The notes under the pieces were generated by a model. That model was given only the letters and a program-made list of their open reading frames with translations. It was not told where the DNA came from and ran no database searches. This document shows positions 24,027 through 34,598 of a stretch of 43,800 nucleotides of DNA, one piece after another. Position numbers and translations under genes: made by a program. Source of the stretch: Escherichia coli (lineage in GTDB: Bacteria > Pseudomonadota > Gammaproteobacteria > Enterobacterales > Enterobacteriaceae); assembly GCF_003334315.1 (NCBI RefSeq), contig NZ_QOWR01000040.1; one strand, given 5' to 3'. The stretch's first letter is position 1; every line of letters begins with the position of its first letter.

Positions 24027-24473
24027 TTATTTGCCTTCGTGCGCGTGCTCATCTTCGCGGCAATCGCCTTCGGCACAGTGACCGTAAAGATAGAGACTGT
24101 GGTTAGTCAGGCGAATGCCATGTTTTGCGGCAATTTCACGCTGACGCGCTTCGATGGAATCATCACTAAATTCGATAACCTTGCCGCAGTCGAGGCAGAT
24201 CAGGTGATCGTGGTGATGTTGCTGTGTCAGTTCAAATACGGATTTACCGCCTTCAAAATTGTGGCGGGTGACGATACCAGCGTCGTCAAACTGGTTCAGT
24301 ACGCGATATACCGTAGCCAGACCAATTTCTTCACCCATATCGATCAGACGTTTGTATAAATCTTCCGCACTGACGTGATGGTTGTCCGGCTCCTGAAGAA
24401 CTTCCAGGATTTTTAAACGAGGAAGCGTTACTTTCAGGCCAGCTTTCTTTAGGGCGGTATTGTTATCAGTCAT
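24027..24473 (-). CDS. fur: Ferric uptake regulator Fur (148 aa)
   Basis: N-terminus MTDNNTALKKAGLKVTLPRLKILEVL; metal-binding HHHDH and C-terminal Cys/His cluster. Confidence 0.95.
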   Translation of the reverse strand: MTDNNTALKKAGLKVTLPRLKILEVLQEPDNHHVSAEDLYKRLIDMGEEIGLATVYRVLNQFDDAGIVTRHNFEGGKSVFELTQQHHHDHLICLDCGKVIEFSDDSIEARQREIAAKHGIRLTNHSLYLYGHCAEGDCREDEHAHEGK

Positions 24474-24761: not shown

Positions 24762-25292
24762 TCAGGCATTGAGAATTTCGTCGAGATGCAACTCTTCAGA
24801 AATCTGTTTAACCCATTTTTCTACACGTTCAGCGGTCAGTTCCGGCTGACGGTCTTCGTCGATAGCCAGACCGACAAAGTGGTCGTCATCTGCCAGACCT
24901 TTTGATGCTTCGAAATGATAGCCCGCAGTTGGCCAGTGACCAACGATGGTTGCACCGCGCGGTTCAATGATGTCGCGGATGGTGCCCAATGCGTCGCAGA
25001 AATATTCGGCGTAATCTTCCTGGTCACCACAACCAAACAGCGCAACCAGTTTGCCATTGAAATCAATCTCTTCGAGAGTCGGGAAGAAGTCATCCCAGTC
25101 ACACTGCGCTTCGCCGTAATACCAGGTTGGGATGCCCAGCAGCAGAATGTCATAAGCTTCCAGATCTTCTTTGCTGCTTTTTGCAATGTCATGGACATCG
25201 GCAACGTCTTTACCAAGCTGTTTTTGAATCATTTTTGCGATATTTTCGGTATTACCGGTGTCGCTGCCGAAAAAGATGCCAGTGATAGCCAT
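24762..25292 (-). CDS. fldA: Flavodoxin 1 FldA (176 aa; six-frame ORF extends to 25409)
   Basis: N-terminus [16 protein letters not shown] (FMN-binding loop). Confidence 0.95.
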
Positions 25293-25431: not shown

Positions 25432-25725
25432 TTAAACGATGCCCTGACTACGCAGCGCCGCCAGTTGCTGCATTAACATCTCTTCGATCAGTTCGCTACG
25501 GCTCATATTGCGCGATTCCGCCAGCTCGTTCAGCGCCTCGACAGCTTCCGCGTTCAGCTTCAGTTCGACACGCTTAAGGCCACGTACTTTGTCGCGTTTT
25601 AGTTGGTTGCGTTTATTAATACGCAGCTGTTCATCGCGCGAAAGCGGATTAGTTTTCGGTCGTCCCGGTCGACGCTCGTGCGCGAACAGATCTAATGTCG
25701 TACGGTCCGTTTGTTCTTTGGCCAT
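25432..25725 (-). CDS. ybfE: YbfE, small basic protein with ribbon-helix-helix-like C-terminus (97 aa; ORF extends to 25794)
   Basis: Start MAKEQTDR; C-terminal segment [34 protein letters not shown] resembles an RHH/CopG-like fold. Confidence 0.8.
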
Positions 25726-25864
25726 GATCTTGGTGACTTCGGGGGAAACAATCAGCCAGGCCTCTGCCCGGATGGATAGCGCGCCATAATACATCAGCGC
25801 GATGAGTCACGCCAACGCCCACGCGCGGAAAGCGACGCGGACGCTGGGTTTTTAATCAGTTGCG

Positions 25865-26629
25865 TTAATCATTGAGATAGCGACGGATAGCGCGTAATAC
25901 CGCATCTGGTTTTTCAGCATGGACCCAGTGACCCGCGCCTGCAATGACATGCGCCCGTGCCTGTGGAAATTGTGCCAGTAAATCATCACGGTACTGCTCG
26001 CTAACATACGGAGAATTACCACCAGGGATAAACAGGGCAGGGTGATCCCATGCCGGGATTTTCTCCCAACCCACAATATGCGGATACTGATCCCACAATA
26101 CCGGCACGTTAAAGCGCCACTCCCCGTCAACAAAAGATTTCAACAGAAACTGAATCACCCCTTCTTCATTAAGATGCTGGCGCATTATTGCTGCTGCTTG
26201 CTGGCGAGTTTGTGCGTCCGATTCACTGACCGCGTTGATAGCTGCGAAAATCTCATCATGACGGCGTACGTGATAGTCGACCGGTGCGATATCGATCGCC
26301 ACCAGTTTATCGATGCGATCGGGGGCCAGTGCAGTAAGTGCCATTACCGCTTTACCGCCCATGGAGTGACCGATAAATGTTGCTTTGTCGATCTGCAGTG
26401 CATCCAGGGTATCAACAAGATCCTGCGCCATCGCCGGGTAATTCATTACCGGCTCTCTCGGTGAAAGACCGTGGTTACGCATATCAACCTGGATGATATT
26501 GTGATCGTTTACCAGATCGCGAGCCAGTACGCCAAGGTTGTCGAGGCTACCAAACAGACCATGGACAAGAACGATGGGAGAATTATTGTGCTGGTTTTGT
26601 GCAGTTTGCGCGCGGATATTCAATTTCAT
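25865..26629 (-). CDS. ybfF: Esterase YbfF, alpha/beta-hydrolase (254 aa)
   Basis: Nucleophile elbow GHSMGG. Confidence 0.9.
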   Translation of the reverse strand: MKLNIRAQTAQNQHNNSPIVLVHGLFGSLDNLGVLARDLVNDHNIIQVDMRNHGLSPREPVMNYPAMAQDLVDTLDALQIDKATFIGHSMGGKAVMALTALAPDRIDKLVAIDIAPVDYHVRRHDEIFAAINAVSESDAQTRQQAAAIMRQHLNEEGVIQFLLKSFVDGEWRFNVPVLWDQYPHIVGWEKIPAWDHPALFIPGGNSPYVSEQYRDDLLAQFPQARAHVIAGAGHWVHAEKPDAVLRAIRRYLND

Positions 26630-30773: not shown

Positions 30774-32093
30774 TTAACCGTGTTTATTTTTCAGTTCAAA
30801 GCGTGGTGATACCAGACCATACAGTGTCCAACCAAGGAAGGTCACGATGGAACCGTACAGCATGGCTTCTTCCCCGGATGAGTACAGCGCATAGAAACTG
30901 TACATCGCGCCAACAAAAGCAACAAAGTTTGCAACTTTCGCTTTTGAGGGGGGCACATTAGCGACCTTCTGAATAATGACTAATGCCGCCATTGACAGAA
31001 TATACGGAATGATATTGGTCACCACGGCCAGGTTAACCAGCACGTTGAACTGACTGTTTAGCGACGGGCTAATCGTCATCAGCGCCAACCCGCTCTGGAT
31101 AATCACAATGGTCAACATTCCCTGCACCGGTGCATCCACTTTGGTTACACGGGAGAAAATTTTAGGGAAGTAGCCTTCATCAGATGAAGATTTAAACACC
31201 TGGGCAATGGTGAACTGCCAGCCAAGTAGCGAACCGCAGCAGGACATCACCATCAGCGCCATAATGACTTTACCCACTTCCGGCGTGAACATCTGCGCGA
31301 AGGCCAGACCAAATGGTGCCGTTGAATTTGCCAGCTCCATATTTGGCACAATCCCGGCAATCACGTTGGTGGAGACGATATAAATCACCGCCGCACCTAA
31401 CGTACCGCCGAGTACCGCGATTGGCACATTACGTTCCGGGTTTTCCACTACATCAGTATTTGCACACGCAGACTCCAGACCAAGAAAAGCCCACAGCGTC
31501 ATAGCGATGGAAGAACCTACCGCACTGAAGAACGGTGCATGATGCGGATTCCAGGAATCAACGTACAGCGTCGGGCTAAACCAGAACCAGCCAATAATGC
31601 ACAGACCGACGACCGGAATAATGACCCCCCACACGGTAATGCTACTGATTTGCCCGGTAATGCGCGCACCACCAAAGTTAGCCACGGTACAAATCCACAG
31701 CACCCCGATGGTCGCAAGACCAATCTGCACTGGCGACAAACTCGCGCCGAGCAGTTCGGTGCCGTAACCAACCGCCGAAATAGCAATCGCGACGTTAGCA
31801 ATCAGCAGTGAGACGCCGTAGGTATAGTTCGCCATAAAGTTACCGGATTTACCGAAAGCATACTCGGCATAACCGCCCATACCGCCTGATTTACGGCTGA
31901 ACATACCGCATTTTGCGAATGCCCATGCCAGTGCCATTGAGCCTACGGCTGTCACCAGCCAGGAGATAATTGAGATTGTCCCGACTTCGGCAAGCTTTGT
32001 CGGCAGCATGATGATACCGGAGCCCATCATGTTGACCATCGTCAGTATGGTTAACTGAACGACGCCCATTTTGTTCGATTTAGCCTGACTCAT
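30774..32093 (-). CDS. potE: Putrescine/ornithine antiporter PotE (439 aa)
   Basis: APC-family multi-TM protein; 4-bp overlap with speF stop. Confidence 0.95.
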   Translation of the reverse strand: MSQAKSNKMGVVQLTILTMVNMMGSGIIMLPTKLAEVGTISIISWLVTAVGSMALAWAFAKCGMFSRKSGGMGGYAEYAFGKSGNFMANYTYGVSLLIANVAIAISAVGYGTELLGASLSPVQIGLATIGVLWICTVANFGGARITGQISSITVWGVIIPVVGLCIIGWFWFSPTLYVDSWNPHHAPFFSAVGSSIAMTLWAFLGLESACANTDVVENPERNVPIAVLGGTLGAAVIYIVSTNVIAGIVPNMELANSTAPFGLAFAQMFTPEVGKVIMALMVMSCCGSLLGWQFTIAQVFKSSSDEGYFPKIFSRVTKVDAPVQGMLTIVIIQSGLALMTISPSLNSQFNVLVNLAVVTNIIPYILSMAALVIIQKVANVPPSKAKVANFVAFVGAMYSFYALYSSGEEAMLYGSIVTFLGWTLYGLVSPRFELKNKHG

Positions 32094-34288
32094 AATTTTT
32101 CCCCTTTCAACAGGGTGCTTTGCGCATCACGAGGCTTGATGACATAGCACCAAACTTGCTTACGACCATCATGTTCTTCGATATAGACACCCTGCAGCTC
32201 CGGTGCAAAACCTGGCAGCAGGTTGATCCCTTCTTCCAGAGCGCTGAAGTAACGCAGAACAGCACCACCCCAGATTTCACCCGGAACAACACACAGCACA
32301 CCCGGAGGATAAGGAAGCGCACCTTCGGCAGCGATACGGCCTTCTGCATCCGGCAGACGAACCAGTTCCACTTCACCGCGTAAATAGGCGTAGTTGGCTT
32401 CTTGCGGATTCATGCTGACGCGTGGGAAGTGCTCCTTACGGAACATCTCTTTTTGCAGTTGTTTCACGTTGTGGCGGGCATACAAATCATGCATTTCCTG
32501 ACACAACTGACGCAGGGTATAACCGGCGTAGCGCTCTTCATGCTGTTTGTAGATGGAAGGTAGCACTTCTGCTAATGGCGCGTCGGACTCAAGCAGTTTT
32601 TCGAAGCGTACCAGCAGGGCAACAAGTTGCTGAAGTTTGGCCATATCTTCTGCCGGAGTCAGCAGGAAGAGGATGGAGTTAAGATCGCATTTTTCCGGCA
32701 CTACGCCATTTTCGCGTAGGAAGTTAGCAAGAATCGTCGCGGGTACACCGAACGCTTCATATTCGCCGTTACGTGCATCAATACCTGGGGTTGTCAGCAA
32801 CAGTTTGCATGGATCGACAAAGTATTGATTCTCTGCATAGCCTTCAAAAGAATGCCAGTGTTCCCCTGGTACAAACTGGAAGAAGCGCAGATCAACCGCA
32901 ATTTGCGCTGTTTCATACGACTGCCAGGGTTTACCATCCACCAGTTCAGGTACGAACGGACGAATATGCTGACAGTTATCGAGGATCAGTTTGCGGGCAT
33001 TAATGCCATTTACCACACAATCCATCCACATATTACGACCGCTGACACCTTCATGCATTTTGGCGTTGATATCCAGTGCGGCAAACAGCGGATAGAACGG
33101 GCTGGTGGAGGCGTGCATCATAAAGGCGTTGTTCATGCGTTTGTGCGGTACATAACGCTGTTGCCCTTTGATGTGGCTGTCTTTTTTATGAATTTGTGAA
33201 GTCTGAGAAAAACCAGCCTGTTGTTTATGCACAGATTGCGTAACCAGAATACCCGGATCGTTCTCATTAAGATCCAGCAACAGCGGCGAACAGTCCGCCA
33301 TCATCGGAATAAACTGTTCATAGCCGACCCATGCTGAGTCAAACAGGATGTAGTCACACAGATGACCAATTTTATCCACCACCTGGCGGGCGTTATAAAT
33401 CGTACCGTCGTAGGTGCCTAACTGAATCACAGCGAGGCGGAAAGGACGAGCCTCTTTTGCCCGCTGCGGTGCGACTTCCGCGATCAGCTCACGCAGGTAA
33501 CTTTCTTCAAAACAGTGCGCATCAATGCCACCGATAAAGCCATACGGGTTACGTGCCGTTTCCAGATAAACCGGTGTTGCACCAGCCTGTAGCAACGCTC
33601 CGTGGTGGTTAGATTTGTGGTTATTGCGGTCAAACAGCACCAGATCACCCGGTGTTAGCAGGGCGTTTAAAACCACTTTGTTAGAAAATGAAGTGCCATT
33701 TAAAACGAAGTAGGTTTTATCGGCATTAAACACTTTTGCCGCATGTTGCTGTGCAATGCATGGCGCGCCTTCGTGAATCAGCAGATCGCCCATCGCTACG
33801 TCGGCGTTGCACAAGTCGGCACGGAACAGCGCCTCACCAAAGTATTCCACAAACTGATTCCCCGCCGGATGGCGACGGAAAAATTCGCCGCCCTGATGAC
33901 CAGGGCAATCAAACGCGCTGTTACCTTGATTGACATAATCGACCAGTGCGCGGAAGAAAGGTGGGCGCAGTTGAGTTTCATAATGGCTGGCAGCGGTTTC
34001 TAACTGGCGACCATAAAATTCTTTACGTGCTTCGCTAGGTTCGAAGACACCAGAAATACGTGAAAGATATTCTGCTGGTATACGTTCTTCATTTTCCGTT
34101 GCAATAAAAACAGGAATGCCATAGCCAGTAGCGTCTATTTCATCGAGTTTTCCACGTTCCACATCATTGACCGATAAAATAATGGCGGCAACGTCAATAT
34201 AATTACTTTCGTCAATATTCACGCATGTACGATGAGTGGAAAAACAATCCGGGCAAGAACGACTAACGGCAATTTTTAATTCTGACAT
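32090..34288 (-). CDS. speF: Inducible ornithine decarboxylase SpeF (732 aa; ORF could start 3 codons upstream at 34297)
   Basis: Large PLP-dependent Orn/Lys/Arg decarboxylase fold; speF-potE operon. Confidence 0.9.
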   Translation of the reverse strand: MSELKIAVSRSCPDCFSTHRTCVNIDESNYIDVAAIILSVNDVERGKLDEIDATGYGIPVFIATENEERIPAEYLSRISGVFEPSEARKEFYGRQLETAASHYETQLRPPFFRALVDYVNQGNSAFDCPGHQGGEFFRRHPAGNQFVEYFGEALFRADLCNADVAMGDLLIHEGAPCIAQQHAAKVFNADKTYFVLNGTSFSNKVVLNALLTPGDLVLFDRNNHKSNHHGALLQAGATPVYLETARNPYGFIGGIDAHCFEESYLRELIAEVAPQRAKEARPFRLAVIQLGTYDGTIYNARQVVDKIGHLCDYILFDSAWVGYEQFIPMMADCSPLLLDLNENDPGILVTQSVHKQQAGFSQTSQIHKKDSHIKGQQRYVPHKRMNNAFMMHASTSPFYPLFAALDINAKMHEGVSGRNMWMDCVVNGINARKLILDNCQHIRPFVPELVDGKPWQSYETAQIAVDLRFFQFVPGEHWHSFEGYAENQYFVDPCKLLLTTPGIDARNGEYEAFGVPATILANFLRENGVVPEKCDLNSILFLLTPAEDMAKLQQLVALLVRFEKLLESDAPLAEVLPSIYKQHEERYAGYTLRQLCQEMHDLYARHNVKQLQKEMFRKEHFPRVSMNPQEANYAYLRGEVELVRLPDAEGRIAAEGALPYPPGVLCVVPGEIWGGAVLRYFSALEEGINLLPGFAPELQGVYIEEHDGRKQVWCYVIKPRDAQSTLLKGEKL

Positions 34289-34598
34289 TTTGTTCATCTC
34301 TTTATTTCAGGTAATAGCAGGTCCTCAATTTCTCAAAGGAGAAATCGATCACGCCGGAAAAAAAGCAAAGCTCCACCGCTGATAAATAAATCAGTAGTTT
34401 GCTTTTTGCAGATGCAATAACCCAGACCAGCCCGGTAACTGGCTATACTCGTCATCCTTCAAGTTGCATATGCTGCGACTCGAATTATTTAGAGTTTAAA
34501 AGGGTTAGCAGTATATGAGCACCGAGGAATACAGGTATTAACCTGTAATGCTTAAAGTCAGGGAGACCTGTACGCTGGGGTGCCCTTTAGTCAGAAGA

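Follow-up and report, generated by a model that had tools for sequence, protein, structure and literature searches.

The open reading frame (ORF) analyzed here is very probably the already annotated ybfE (b0685), which encodes a 97-amino acid ribbon-helix-helix (RHH) DNA-binding protein. Its start codon is unambiguously the ATG at position 25725 of the window, that is, the whole 43,800-nucleotide stretch of DNA that was analyzed, and the 120-amino acid form that can be read from an upstream ATG is not real.

Identity and genomic context of ybfE

The window was identified as Escherichia coli chromosomal DNA covering the fur-uof-fldA-ybfE-ybfF / seqA-pgm region. The ybfE coding sequence, comprising 97 codons and the stop codon, was located at 25432..25725 on the minus strand, as indicated by the RefSeq annotation, the NCBIfam model NF008671, Pfam RHH_1, AlphaFold (AF2) modeling, and codon-position variability. 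Its counterpart in K-12 MG1655 is b0685 (NP_415211.2; 711605-711898, corresponding to 25432-25725 of the window; 97 codons), and the K-12 YbfE was identical in sequence, in neighbours, and in its 97-amino acid product, with no sequence difference. Of the 5426 complete E. coli genomes, 5425 contained a 651-nt stretch around ybfE at 95-100% identity, annotated there as "ybfE: LexA regulated protein" beside "ybfF: esterase". RefSeq names the product either "LexA regulated protein" or "ribbon-helix-helix domain-containing protein YbfE". YbfE was a member of the NF008671 equivalog family ("LexA regulated protein"), scoring 169 bits against a cut-off of 62 in an alignment that joined positions 1-94 of the 95-position model to residues 1-94 of the 97-amino acid form.

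Downstream of ybfE, fldA (flavodoxin 1) was annotated at 24762..25292 and fur at 24027-24473, both on the minus strand, with uof listed between them on the same strand. The esterase gene ybfF, which the initial annotation had named as the neighbour of ybfE, was confirmed upstream at 25865..26629, also on the minus strand, and seqA and pgm followed on the plus strand. ybfE was thus situated within the seqA neighbourhood. The gene, the RHH fold, the LexA box, and the corrected start are all already on record in the reference annotation and the literature. Among the open-access publications mentioning ybfE, we found no characterization of YbfE, and no DNA target, operator, or regulatory phenotype.

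Start codon of ybfE

The maximal ORF extended on the minus strand from the ATG at 25794 to the stop at 25432 (120 codons), and contained the ATG at 25725 in frame, from which 97 amino acids are read. The 23-codon upstream reach was therefore present as initially described; however, the accompanying conclusion that the true start is ambiguous did not hold. Four lines of evidence placed the start at 25725, namely, the boundary of NF008671, the invariance of M1, upstream stops and frameshifts, and a codon periodicity that was confined to the 97-codon ORF. NF008671 began at residue 24 of the 120-codon ORF, where its positions 1-94 aligned to residues 24-117 and gave 168-169 bits with or without the extension. 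M1 of the 97-residue form was invariant throughout the YbfE family, even in the relatives from Aeromonas and Shewanella and in Marinomonas-type ones, and most family representatives, down to ~35% identity, began exactly at this methionine.

For comparison of the nucleotide sequences, 80 loci were retrieved, all from Enterobacteriaceae, and 469 species genomes were positive. A stop codon was located two codons before ATG 25725 in ~36 of the 80 loci. Furthermore, Salmonella carried an in-frame TAA eleven codons upstream of this ATG, a 1-nt deletion in the upstream stretch shifted the frame in Citrobacter, and E. albertii and one E. coli lineage had TTG in place of the upstream ATG. Across the 80 loci, the mean minor-allele fraction at the first, second, and third codon positions of the 97-codon ORF was 0.063, 0.022, and 0.305, which is a clear coding signature, and the corresponding values for the 23 upstream codons were 0.427, 0.407, and 0.376, showing no periodicity. 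Within the ORF, the third position was accordingly 7-fold more variable than the first and second, and upstream of it all three positions varied about equally. The Shine-Dalgarno sequence before ATG 25725 was weak.

Promoter and leader of ybfE

A promoter scan detected TTGGCG-18-TATTAT at 25815-25786 on the minus strand. The same TTGGCG-18-TATTAT element in the ybfF-ybfE spacer has been listed as an RpoD constitutive promoter, bound by the RpoD holoenzyme alone (PMC3946193). The −35 hexamer TTGGCG (25810..25815), reported in the same study, was invariant in the aligned Enterobacteriaceae. The −10 hexamer TATTAT (25786..25791), identified by the scan, the alignment, and PMC3946193, was TATGAT in most other genera, and was followed by an invariant GC-rich discriminator, GGCGCGC (25779..25785), all on the minus strand. 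The −35 hexamer, the block CTGATGTAT(G/T)ATGG, and the discriminator were invariant or nearly so across genera; ybfE's own promoter contained an invariant CTGATGTATGATGG block, and the same promoter block was recognizable in Yersinia. From the spacing to the −10 hexamer, we infer that the ybfE transcript starts at about 25780-25777.

The upstream ATG (25794-25792) abutted the −10 hexamer and was kept even in species where it is out of frame. Judged from these alignments, this ATG is conserved as part of the promoter. Since it abuts the −10 hexamer of an RpoD-bound promoter, it would lie upstream of the likely transcript start. The proposal that the 120-residue form is a true or alternative product, bearing a hydrophobic N-terminal extension of 23 residues (MYYGALSIRAEAWLIVSPEVTKI), deserves hardly any credence when set against this arrangement. 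The longer frame is open in this window, the upstream ATG allele is present in ~97% of the complete E. coli genomes (identity over the 60 nt was 99% or higher for 5258 of 5425), many automatic gene callers give YbfE forms of 119-131 amino acids, and read-through from ybfF could in principle yield an mRNA containing ATG 25794. Besides the position of this ATG directly against the −10 hexamer, however, no YbfE family member aligned to the 23-residue extension, both RefSeq and the K-12 reference use 97 amino acids, and the stretch has no codon periodicity and is broken by stops and a frameshift in other genera, with TTG variants of the ATG itself. The coordinates 25432-25794 given initially for the gene therefore represent an over-extended ORF, as the upstream ATG abuts the −10 hexamer and the upstream codons are broken and non-periodic. 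The 23-codon "extension" (25726..25794, minus strand) is noncoding, as shown by the lack of periodicity, the stops, and the frameshifts. It contains the −10 hexamer and the discriminator, together with the probable transcription start and the 5′ leader.

Two RNA hairpins were predicted by folding on the minus strand. The first, in the 5′UTR at 25756..25771, consisted of CCGGGC-AGAG-GCCUGG and was followed by UUGUUUCCCCC. Its structure was kept while the stem sequences differed between genera; per-sequence folding of 49 distinct sequences gave a mean dG of −12 kcal/mol and a mean z of −1.9, and a conserved UUGUUUCCCCCGAAGUCAC was located 3′ of the hairpin. RNAalifold on the 5′UTR alignment gave no consensus owing to gap placement, and an Rfam search of the spacer and leader yielded no family match. 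The second was a GC-rich hairpin at the 3′ end of ybfF (25809..25849), with a dG of −29.4 kcal/mol and a z of −3.8 on the minus strand compared to a z of +0.5 on the plus strand, and with compensatory changes in four of the seven consensus pairs. Its 3′ arm ran into the −35 hexamer. On the downstream side, our scan detected no terminator-like site between ybfE and fldA. Published RNA-seq analysis describes a ybfE-fldA-uof-fur operon with three promoters, and the same study reports that ybfE is turned off in the stationary phase (PMC4161252).

LexA-box-like sequence upstream of ybfE

The initial annotation had suggested a search for a LexA box in 25726-25860. This search found a CTG-N10-CAG sequence, CTGATTAAAAACCCAG, at 25844..25859 on the minus strand, which was also detected by a matrix and is the published ybfE SOS box. 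The primary paper on this box is reportedly that of Fernandez de Henestrosa et al. 2000. Lying three bases after the ybfF stop codon, the box ended 28 nt before the −35 hexamer of the sole promoter-like site, which places it at about −80 to −65. LexA usually does not block RNA polymerase from such a position.

The match of CTGATTAAAAACCCAG to TACTGTATATATATACAGTA covered 11 of 20 positions, and the published heterology index of the ybfE box is 11, rated as "weak" (PMC11228462). With a LexA matrix compiled from operator sequences for this analysis, the box was the top site in the window at 13.3 bits, which equals the weakest training site (training median, 21.1). In shuffled windows, the maxima obtained with this matrix had a mean of 11.8 and a highest value of 14.2 bits, a range within which the 13.3 bits of the ybfE box falls. 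A second AT-rich CTG-N10-CAG sequence at 34379-34394 was rejected as a LexA site, as it forms part of a terminator-like hairpin in the speF leader.

Among the 80 Enterobacteriaceae loci, only those of Escherichia, Citrobacter, and Yokenella carried the intact box. When upstream regions were compared, it was absent in Salmonella, Klebsiella, Enterobacter, Kluyvera, Yersinia, Arsenophonus, Aeromonas, and Shewanella. Salmonella had CAT in place of CAG, and the CAG half was also lost in Klebsiella, Kluyvera, Yersinia, Aeromonas, and Shewanella. The invariant core of the box, TGATTAAAAA, contained the ybfF stop codon in several genera, and the CAG half was held by the 5′ arm of the conserved GC-rich hairpin at 25809..25849. 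Because the core overlaps the ybfF stop region and the CAG lies within this hairpin, the likeness to a LexA operator may in part be a by-product of other constraints. Neither the scan nor inspection by eye found a promoter overlapping the LexA box; the operator does not overlap the core promoter or lie downstream of it.

These data bear on the proposal that ybfE truly belongs to the SOS regulon, with LexA acting as its direct repressor at the 25844-25859 box and DNA damage as its inducer. We consider this doubtful. The AT-rich spacer of the box and its rank as the best LexA-matrix site in the window (13.3 bits) are consistent with such a role; the box is listed as an SOS box in the literature, and ybfE appears in SOS gene lists, including one in a review. 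Moreover, AZT induced ybfE 4-fold (PMC11228462), and a published study reported its induction by nalidixic acid in Salmonella. However, the AZT induction was not lexA-dependent (0.74-fold, PMC11228462), ciprofloxacin did not induce ybfE (PMC11002266), its kinetics after UV were atypical with a late shut-off (PMC5999292), and the Salmonella study found no LexA box at ybfE. The properties of the box itself also argue against direct repression: its score is that of the weakest known operator and lies within the shuffled maxima, with 28 nt between the box and the −35 hexamer downstream of it, bound LexA would leave RNA polymerase unhindered, and its CAG half is lost in several other genera, with the core and CAG also serving the ybfF stop region and the hairpin. 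Any SOS input through the upstream box would be weak at most and confined to the Escherichia/Citrobacter lineage.

Fold and architecture of YbfE

The C-terminal third of the protein had been described initially as RHH-like, with a structure prediction showing no RHH fold named as the result that would speak against it. The description was borne out. Pfam RHH_1 (PF01402) matched residues 75-111 of the 120-codon ORF with an E-value of 4.7e-10 over model positions 1-37 of 39, and the predicted structure had the strand-helix-helix topology of an RHH. The AF2 monomer, calculated from a 26-row alignment, had a pLDDT of 86.6, with helices at residues 30-48, 59-71, and 76-93, an extended segment at 49-58, and a short low-confidence helix at 8-14; DSSP assigned no strands. 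Across the AF2 models, the RHH unit (strand 50-58 and helices 59-71 and 76-93) had a pLDDT of about 95. A dimer was modeled by joining two YbfE copies through a Gly-Ser linker, with homologues fused likewise. In this tethered dimer, which is a modeling device and a prediction only, based on a shallow 24-row alignment, DSSP assigned strands at 50-58 in both copies (pLDDT 84-89). The appearance of strands in the dimer model alone is the behaviour expected of an RHH dimer, since such a ribbon arises only where two chains meet.

Foldseek against the PDB gave, as top matches, the DNA-binding domain of the CopA_SO antitoxin, Arc, CopG, NikR, MazE6, ParG, AmrZ, and AtaR. The rmsd was 1.0 Å to CopG over 40 residues, and 0.8-1.0 Å to CopG and Arc over 37-41 residues, and the target-normalized TM scores of the RHH matches were 0.7-0.9. 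The E-values of 0.3-1 are not significant alone, reflecting a domain of only about 40 residues, and these matches serve as supporting evidence. A sequence search of the PDB retrieved neither YbfE itself nor any close relative (best E-value, 0.21), and the PHROG matches of YbfE were transcriptional repressors. Collectively, the Pfam match, the AlphaFold models, and the Foldseek matches supported an RHH in the C-terminal part of YbfE.

The region preceding the RHH was also conserved. Residues 1-16 contained a conserved D-R-T-T-x-D-L-F motif (D-R-T-T-x-D-[LM]-F at residues 7-14), in which D7, T10, and F14 were each at least 90% conserved. Residues 17-29 formed a basic arm with an invariant G21-R22-P23. 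The GRP was flanked by basic residues in the context [KR]x[RPK]GRP[KR][TS], with RGRP in many relatives, and by this sequence pattern the arm resembles the core of an AT-hook. The mean top-residue frequency was 0.57-0.68 for the segments within residues 1-58, compared to 0.39-0.45 for the RHH helices. This higher conservation of the N-terminal half hints at a function beyond plain operator binding.

Comparison of YbfE with other RHH proteins

In an hhalign comparison, YbfE residues 17-88 matched CopB residues 14-80 with a probability of 95.5% and an E-value of 1.5e-8 at ~10% identity. This profile-profile match, which spans nearly the whole length, supports the view that YbfE is a remote chromosomal homologue of CopB/RepA2, which represses copy number in IncFII plasmids, and that the old "CopB family" label reflects remote homology. 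Both proteins are small (~86 amino acids for CopB/RepA2 and 97 for YbfE) and have a basic N-terminal segment followed by an RHH, and a precomputed match to PF10723, the Pfam family of CopB/RepA2, was present on YbfE relatives. However, YbfE scored only 14 bits (E-value, 0.04) against the CopB/RepA2 model PRK13702, whose cut-off is 87, such that the homology holds at the profile-to-profile level only. YbfE is chromosomal and lies between ybfF and fldA, rather than in an IncFII-type replicon upstream of repA; CopB has no TxDLF motif and has GKP where YbfE has GRP. YbfE is therefore not a CopB/RepA2 member, as it falls below the PRK13702 cut-off and is not part of a replicon. The strand-helix-helix unit is also common to the CopG/Arc/MetJ-type RHH repressors; however, minimal repressors of this kind (45-53 residues) lack the 49-residue conserved N-terminal extension of YbfE with its motif, GRP arm, and long helix.

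YbfE shares its DNA-binding fold with RHH antitoxins as well, including CopA_SO, BrnA, VapB, AtaR, and MazE6, and could be viewed as an orphan type II antitoxin whose toxin was lost or separated. The best PDB fold match was the RHH domain of CopA_SO, and weak sub-threshold matches to BrnA, VapB, and RelB antitoxins were obtained (E-values from 2e-4 to 0.06, with scores of about 14-21 bits where the cut-offs are 50-60). Nevertheless, none of these models reached its cut-off (BrnA, 21 bits against 60; VapB, 15 against 60; RelB, 14 against 50), and YbfE instead belonged to the specific equivalog model NF008671. The initial annotation had noted that ybfE has no adjacent toxin-like partner, and this was borne out by the esterase and flavodoxin genes that flanked it in all lineages examined; no toxin gene adjoined ybfE in any genome examined. 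From E. coli to Shewanella, ybfE was a core gene present in one copy and retained its synteny with fldA. In contrast to RHH antitoxins, YbfE has no C-terminal toxin-binding region, as its RHH is C-terminal with only four residues after helix B. PADLOC gave no defence-system match at ybfE. Lacking a toxin-like neighbour, a toxin-binding tail, and a PADLOC match, YbfE is unlikely to serve as an antitoxin, and the scenario of an orphan antitoxin, in particular, appears extremely improbable.

Distribution and synteny of the YbfE family

The YbfE family was small, with 83 representatives at 50% clustering (E-value ≤1e-3), and was found only in Gammaproteobacteria, namely, in Enterobacterales, Pasteurellales, Aeromonadales, Alteromonadales, and some Oceanospirillales. 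Yersinia, Aeromonas, and Shewanella retained the gene order ybfF-ybfE-fldA. In Arsenophonus, ybfE-fldA-fur survived a rearrangement that replaced the upstream side. ybfE is a core gammaproteobacterial gene that is tightly linked to fldA. More distant relatives of YbfE were observed on mobile elements, beside primase-integrase or conjugation genes, and these relatives did not have the N-terminal TxDLF motif. Plasmid-borne YbfE homologues were rejected: the 18 matches of a tblastn search of PLSDB were chromosomes or chromids wrongly labelled as plasmids, or an error-ridden 28.8-kb assembly of this same chromosomal region, and they carried the same synteny as chromosomal ybfE, providing no sign of a mobile copy.

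Discussion

In the most probable account, ybfE is transcribed from the conserved sigma-70 promoter (25815-25786), which lies within the supposed extension, with the mRNA continuing into fldA-uof-fur. Translation from ATG 25725 yields the 97-residue RHH protein as the product of the first gene of the ybfE-fldA transcript. Two YbfE chains are predicted to pair their strands at residues 50-58 (LKRVELKLN) into an antiparallel ribbon like those that other RHH proteins place in the major groove, and the long basic helix 30-48 and the GRP arm, which precede the RHH, would add phosphate or minor-groove contacts. We infer both the dimeric DNA binding and the role of the GRP arm.

CopB binds an operator and thereby represses the promoter of repA. 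Given the remote CopB/RepA2 homology, operator binding and repression would be the most likely activity of YbfE, which may thus be an operator-binding transcriptional repressor. By analogy with CopB and other RHH proteins, we give about even chances to a repressor role for YbfE, for which the promoter of ybfE-fldA itself is a possible target.

The N-terminal motif offers a different reading. Clamp-binding peptides typically begin with Q, as in the pentapeptide QL[SD]LF. T-[LIQ]-D-[LM]-F at residues 10-14 of YbfE agrees with this motif at four of five positions, without the Q, in a likeness of five residues within a low-pLDDT segment (56-66). It is possibly a motif for binding the sliding clamp or another partner. 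YbfE might accordingly be a DNA-maintenance or adaptor protein, in which TxD[LM]F binds a partner such as the beta sliding clamp while the RHH and the GRP arm hold DNA, although we regard this as very unlikely. The better conservation of the N-terminal half than of the RHH helices, with D7, T10, and F14 at 90% or above, would fit such a role, as would the placement of the motif in a low-confidence, probably flexible segment (pLDDT 56-66), as is usual for linear motifs, and the location of ybfE in the seqA neighbourhood. In addition, a transposon-sequencing screen showed that ybfE disruption alters tolerance to genotoxic drugs, with a fitness gain for the disruptions under these drugs (PMC10165496). 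Against it, the first position of the motif is T and not the clamp-typical Q, the likeness comprises just five residues, and the distant relatives borne on mobile elements lack TxD[LM]F.

A broader suggestion is that YbfE may be a core CopB-like protein that is hard-wired to the essential fldA, acting as a DNA-tethered adaptor or as a regulator of ybfE-fldA-(fur) and not as an SOS effector, such that "LexA regulated protein" would be a misnomer. In this reading, the TxD[LM]F peptide and the RGRP minor-groove arm, rather than the RHH, are the best-conserved parts of the protein. This is offered as a speculation of low probability. To the reference record, the present analysis adds two points: the box that underlies the family name occurs in only a few genera, and the older, longer start overlaps the promoter. 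Annotation as "LexA regulated protein" has spread to hundreds of species that have no LexA box in the promoter, and the YbfE calls of 119-131 residues in many assemblies should be trimmed to 97. Minor leads are the conserved N-terminal TxDLF and RGRP motifs and the two conserved RNA hairpins. YbfE is among the uncharacterized predicted transcription factors of E. coli, for which the linkage to fldA and the N-terminal motifs provide starting points.

Distribution of the CTG-N10-CAG pattern

The bare CTG-N10-CAG pattern was counted across the whole window, giving 23 occurrences compared with 8.4 expected from shuffled versions of the sequence. Codon usage probably accounts for this enrichment, both CTG and CAG being very frequent as codons; the excess shows that, taken by itself, the pattern is uninformative. 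Besides the LexA-box-like sequence of ybfE (25844-25859), the only AT-rich CTG-N10-CAG in the window was CTGATAAATAAATCAG (34379-34394), located approximately 80-100 nt upstream of a 735-codon ORF (32090-34297), which we take to be speF from its position and size. This copy sits within a terminator-like hairpin, making it implausible as a LexA site.

Structured elements around the ybfE promoter

Folding and conservation analysis revealed a strong GC-rich hairpin on the minus strand at 25809-25849, between the ybfF stop codon and the ybfE -35 hexamer, the latter being overlapped by the 3′ arm. As RNA, the minus strand gave a dG of -29.4 kcal/mol and a z-score of -3.8, and the plus strand a z-score of +0.5. 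The hairpin was kept across 20 Enterobacteriaceae and is supported by compensatory changes; an invariant TGATTAAAAA precedes it. On the minus strand an A-tract lies on its 5′ side and no U-tract follows on its 3′ side, so a canonical terminator on this strand was ruled out. We consider that it is probably a structure of the ybfF 3′ end.

Structural conservation also marked a second minus-strand hairpin in the ybfE 5′UTR (25756-25771). The stem sequences varied among genera with the structure kept, and the conserved pyrimidine-rich UUGUUUCCCCCGAAGUCAC comes after the hairpin, in the segment 25737-25755. No Rfam family was found for this region. The element could act as an attenuator within the leader, or its stem-loop could have a stabilising effect.

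Conserved motifs and genomic neighbours of YbfE

Two N-terminal motifs encoded on the minus strand were better conserved than the ribbon-helix-helix helices. Residues 7-14 (25684-25707), D-R-T-T-x-D-[LM]-F, resemble a clamp-binding peptide, and residues 18-25 (25651-25674), [KR]x[RPK]-G-R-P-[KR]-[TS], resemble an AT-hook.

In distant lineages, a small DUF2788 membrane-protein gene directly adjoins ybfE. It lies between a ybfF-like hydrolase gene and ybfE in Shewanella (locus L003, 4769-4990) and Aeromonas (locus L094, upstream of 2501), and is divergent in Maribrevibacterium (locus L087, 3762-3974). No DUF2788 gene was present next to ybfE in Enterobacteriaceae.

In protein databases, E. coli YbfE is listed with a length of 119-136 aa in many entries that come from automatic gene calling. 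The AFDB entry "Flavodoxin [Trichuris trichiura]" (322 aa) includes a YbfE part at 96% identity, and is most likely bacterial contamination in a nematode assembly, with this part fused to fldA. The fetched locus L002 (CP043024.1, a 28.8-kb "plasmid") reproduces the chromosomal pgm-seqA-ybfF-ybfE-fldA-fur region in a form full of errors, including numerous frameshifts. Its appearance is that of an assembly artefact and not of a plasmid.

Conservation of the ybfE promoter

A 20-nt block, CTGATGTAT(T/G)ATGGCGCGCT (25779-25800, minus strand), was almost invariant in Enterobacteriaceae, exceeding what a -10 hexamer needs. The TGATG-TA-TGATG direct repeat in this block might also serve as an operator. 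The GC-rich discriminator of the promoter (25779-25785) suggests that ybfE may be under stringent or growth-rate control, which fits the published shut-off of ybfE in stationary phase (PMC4161252).
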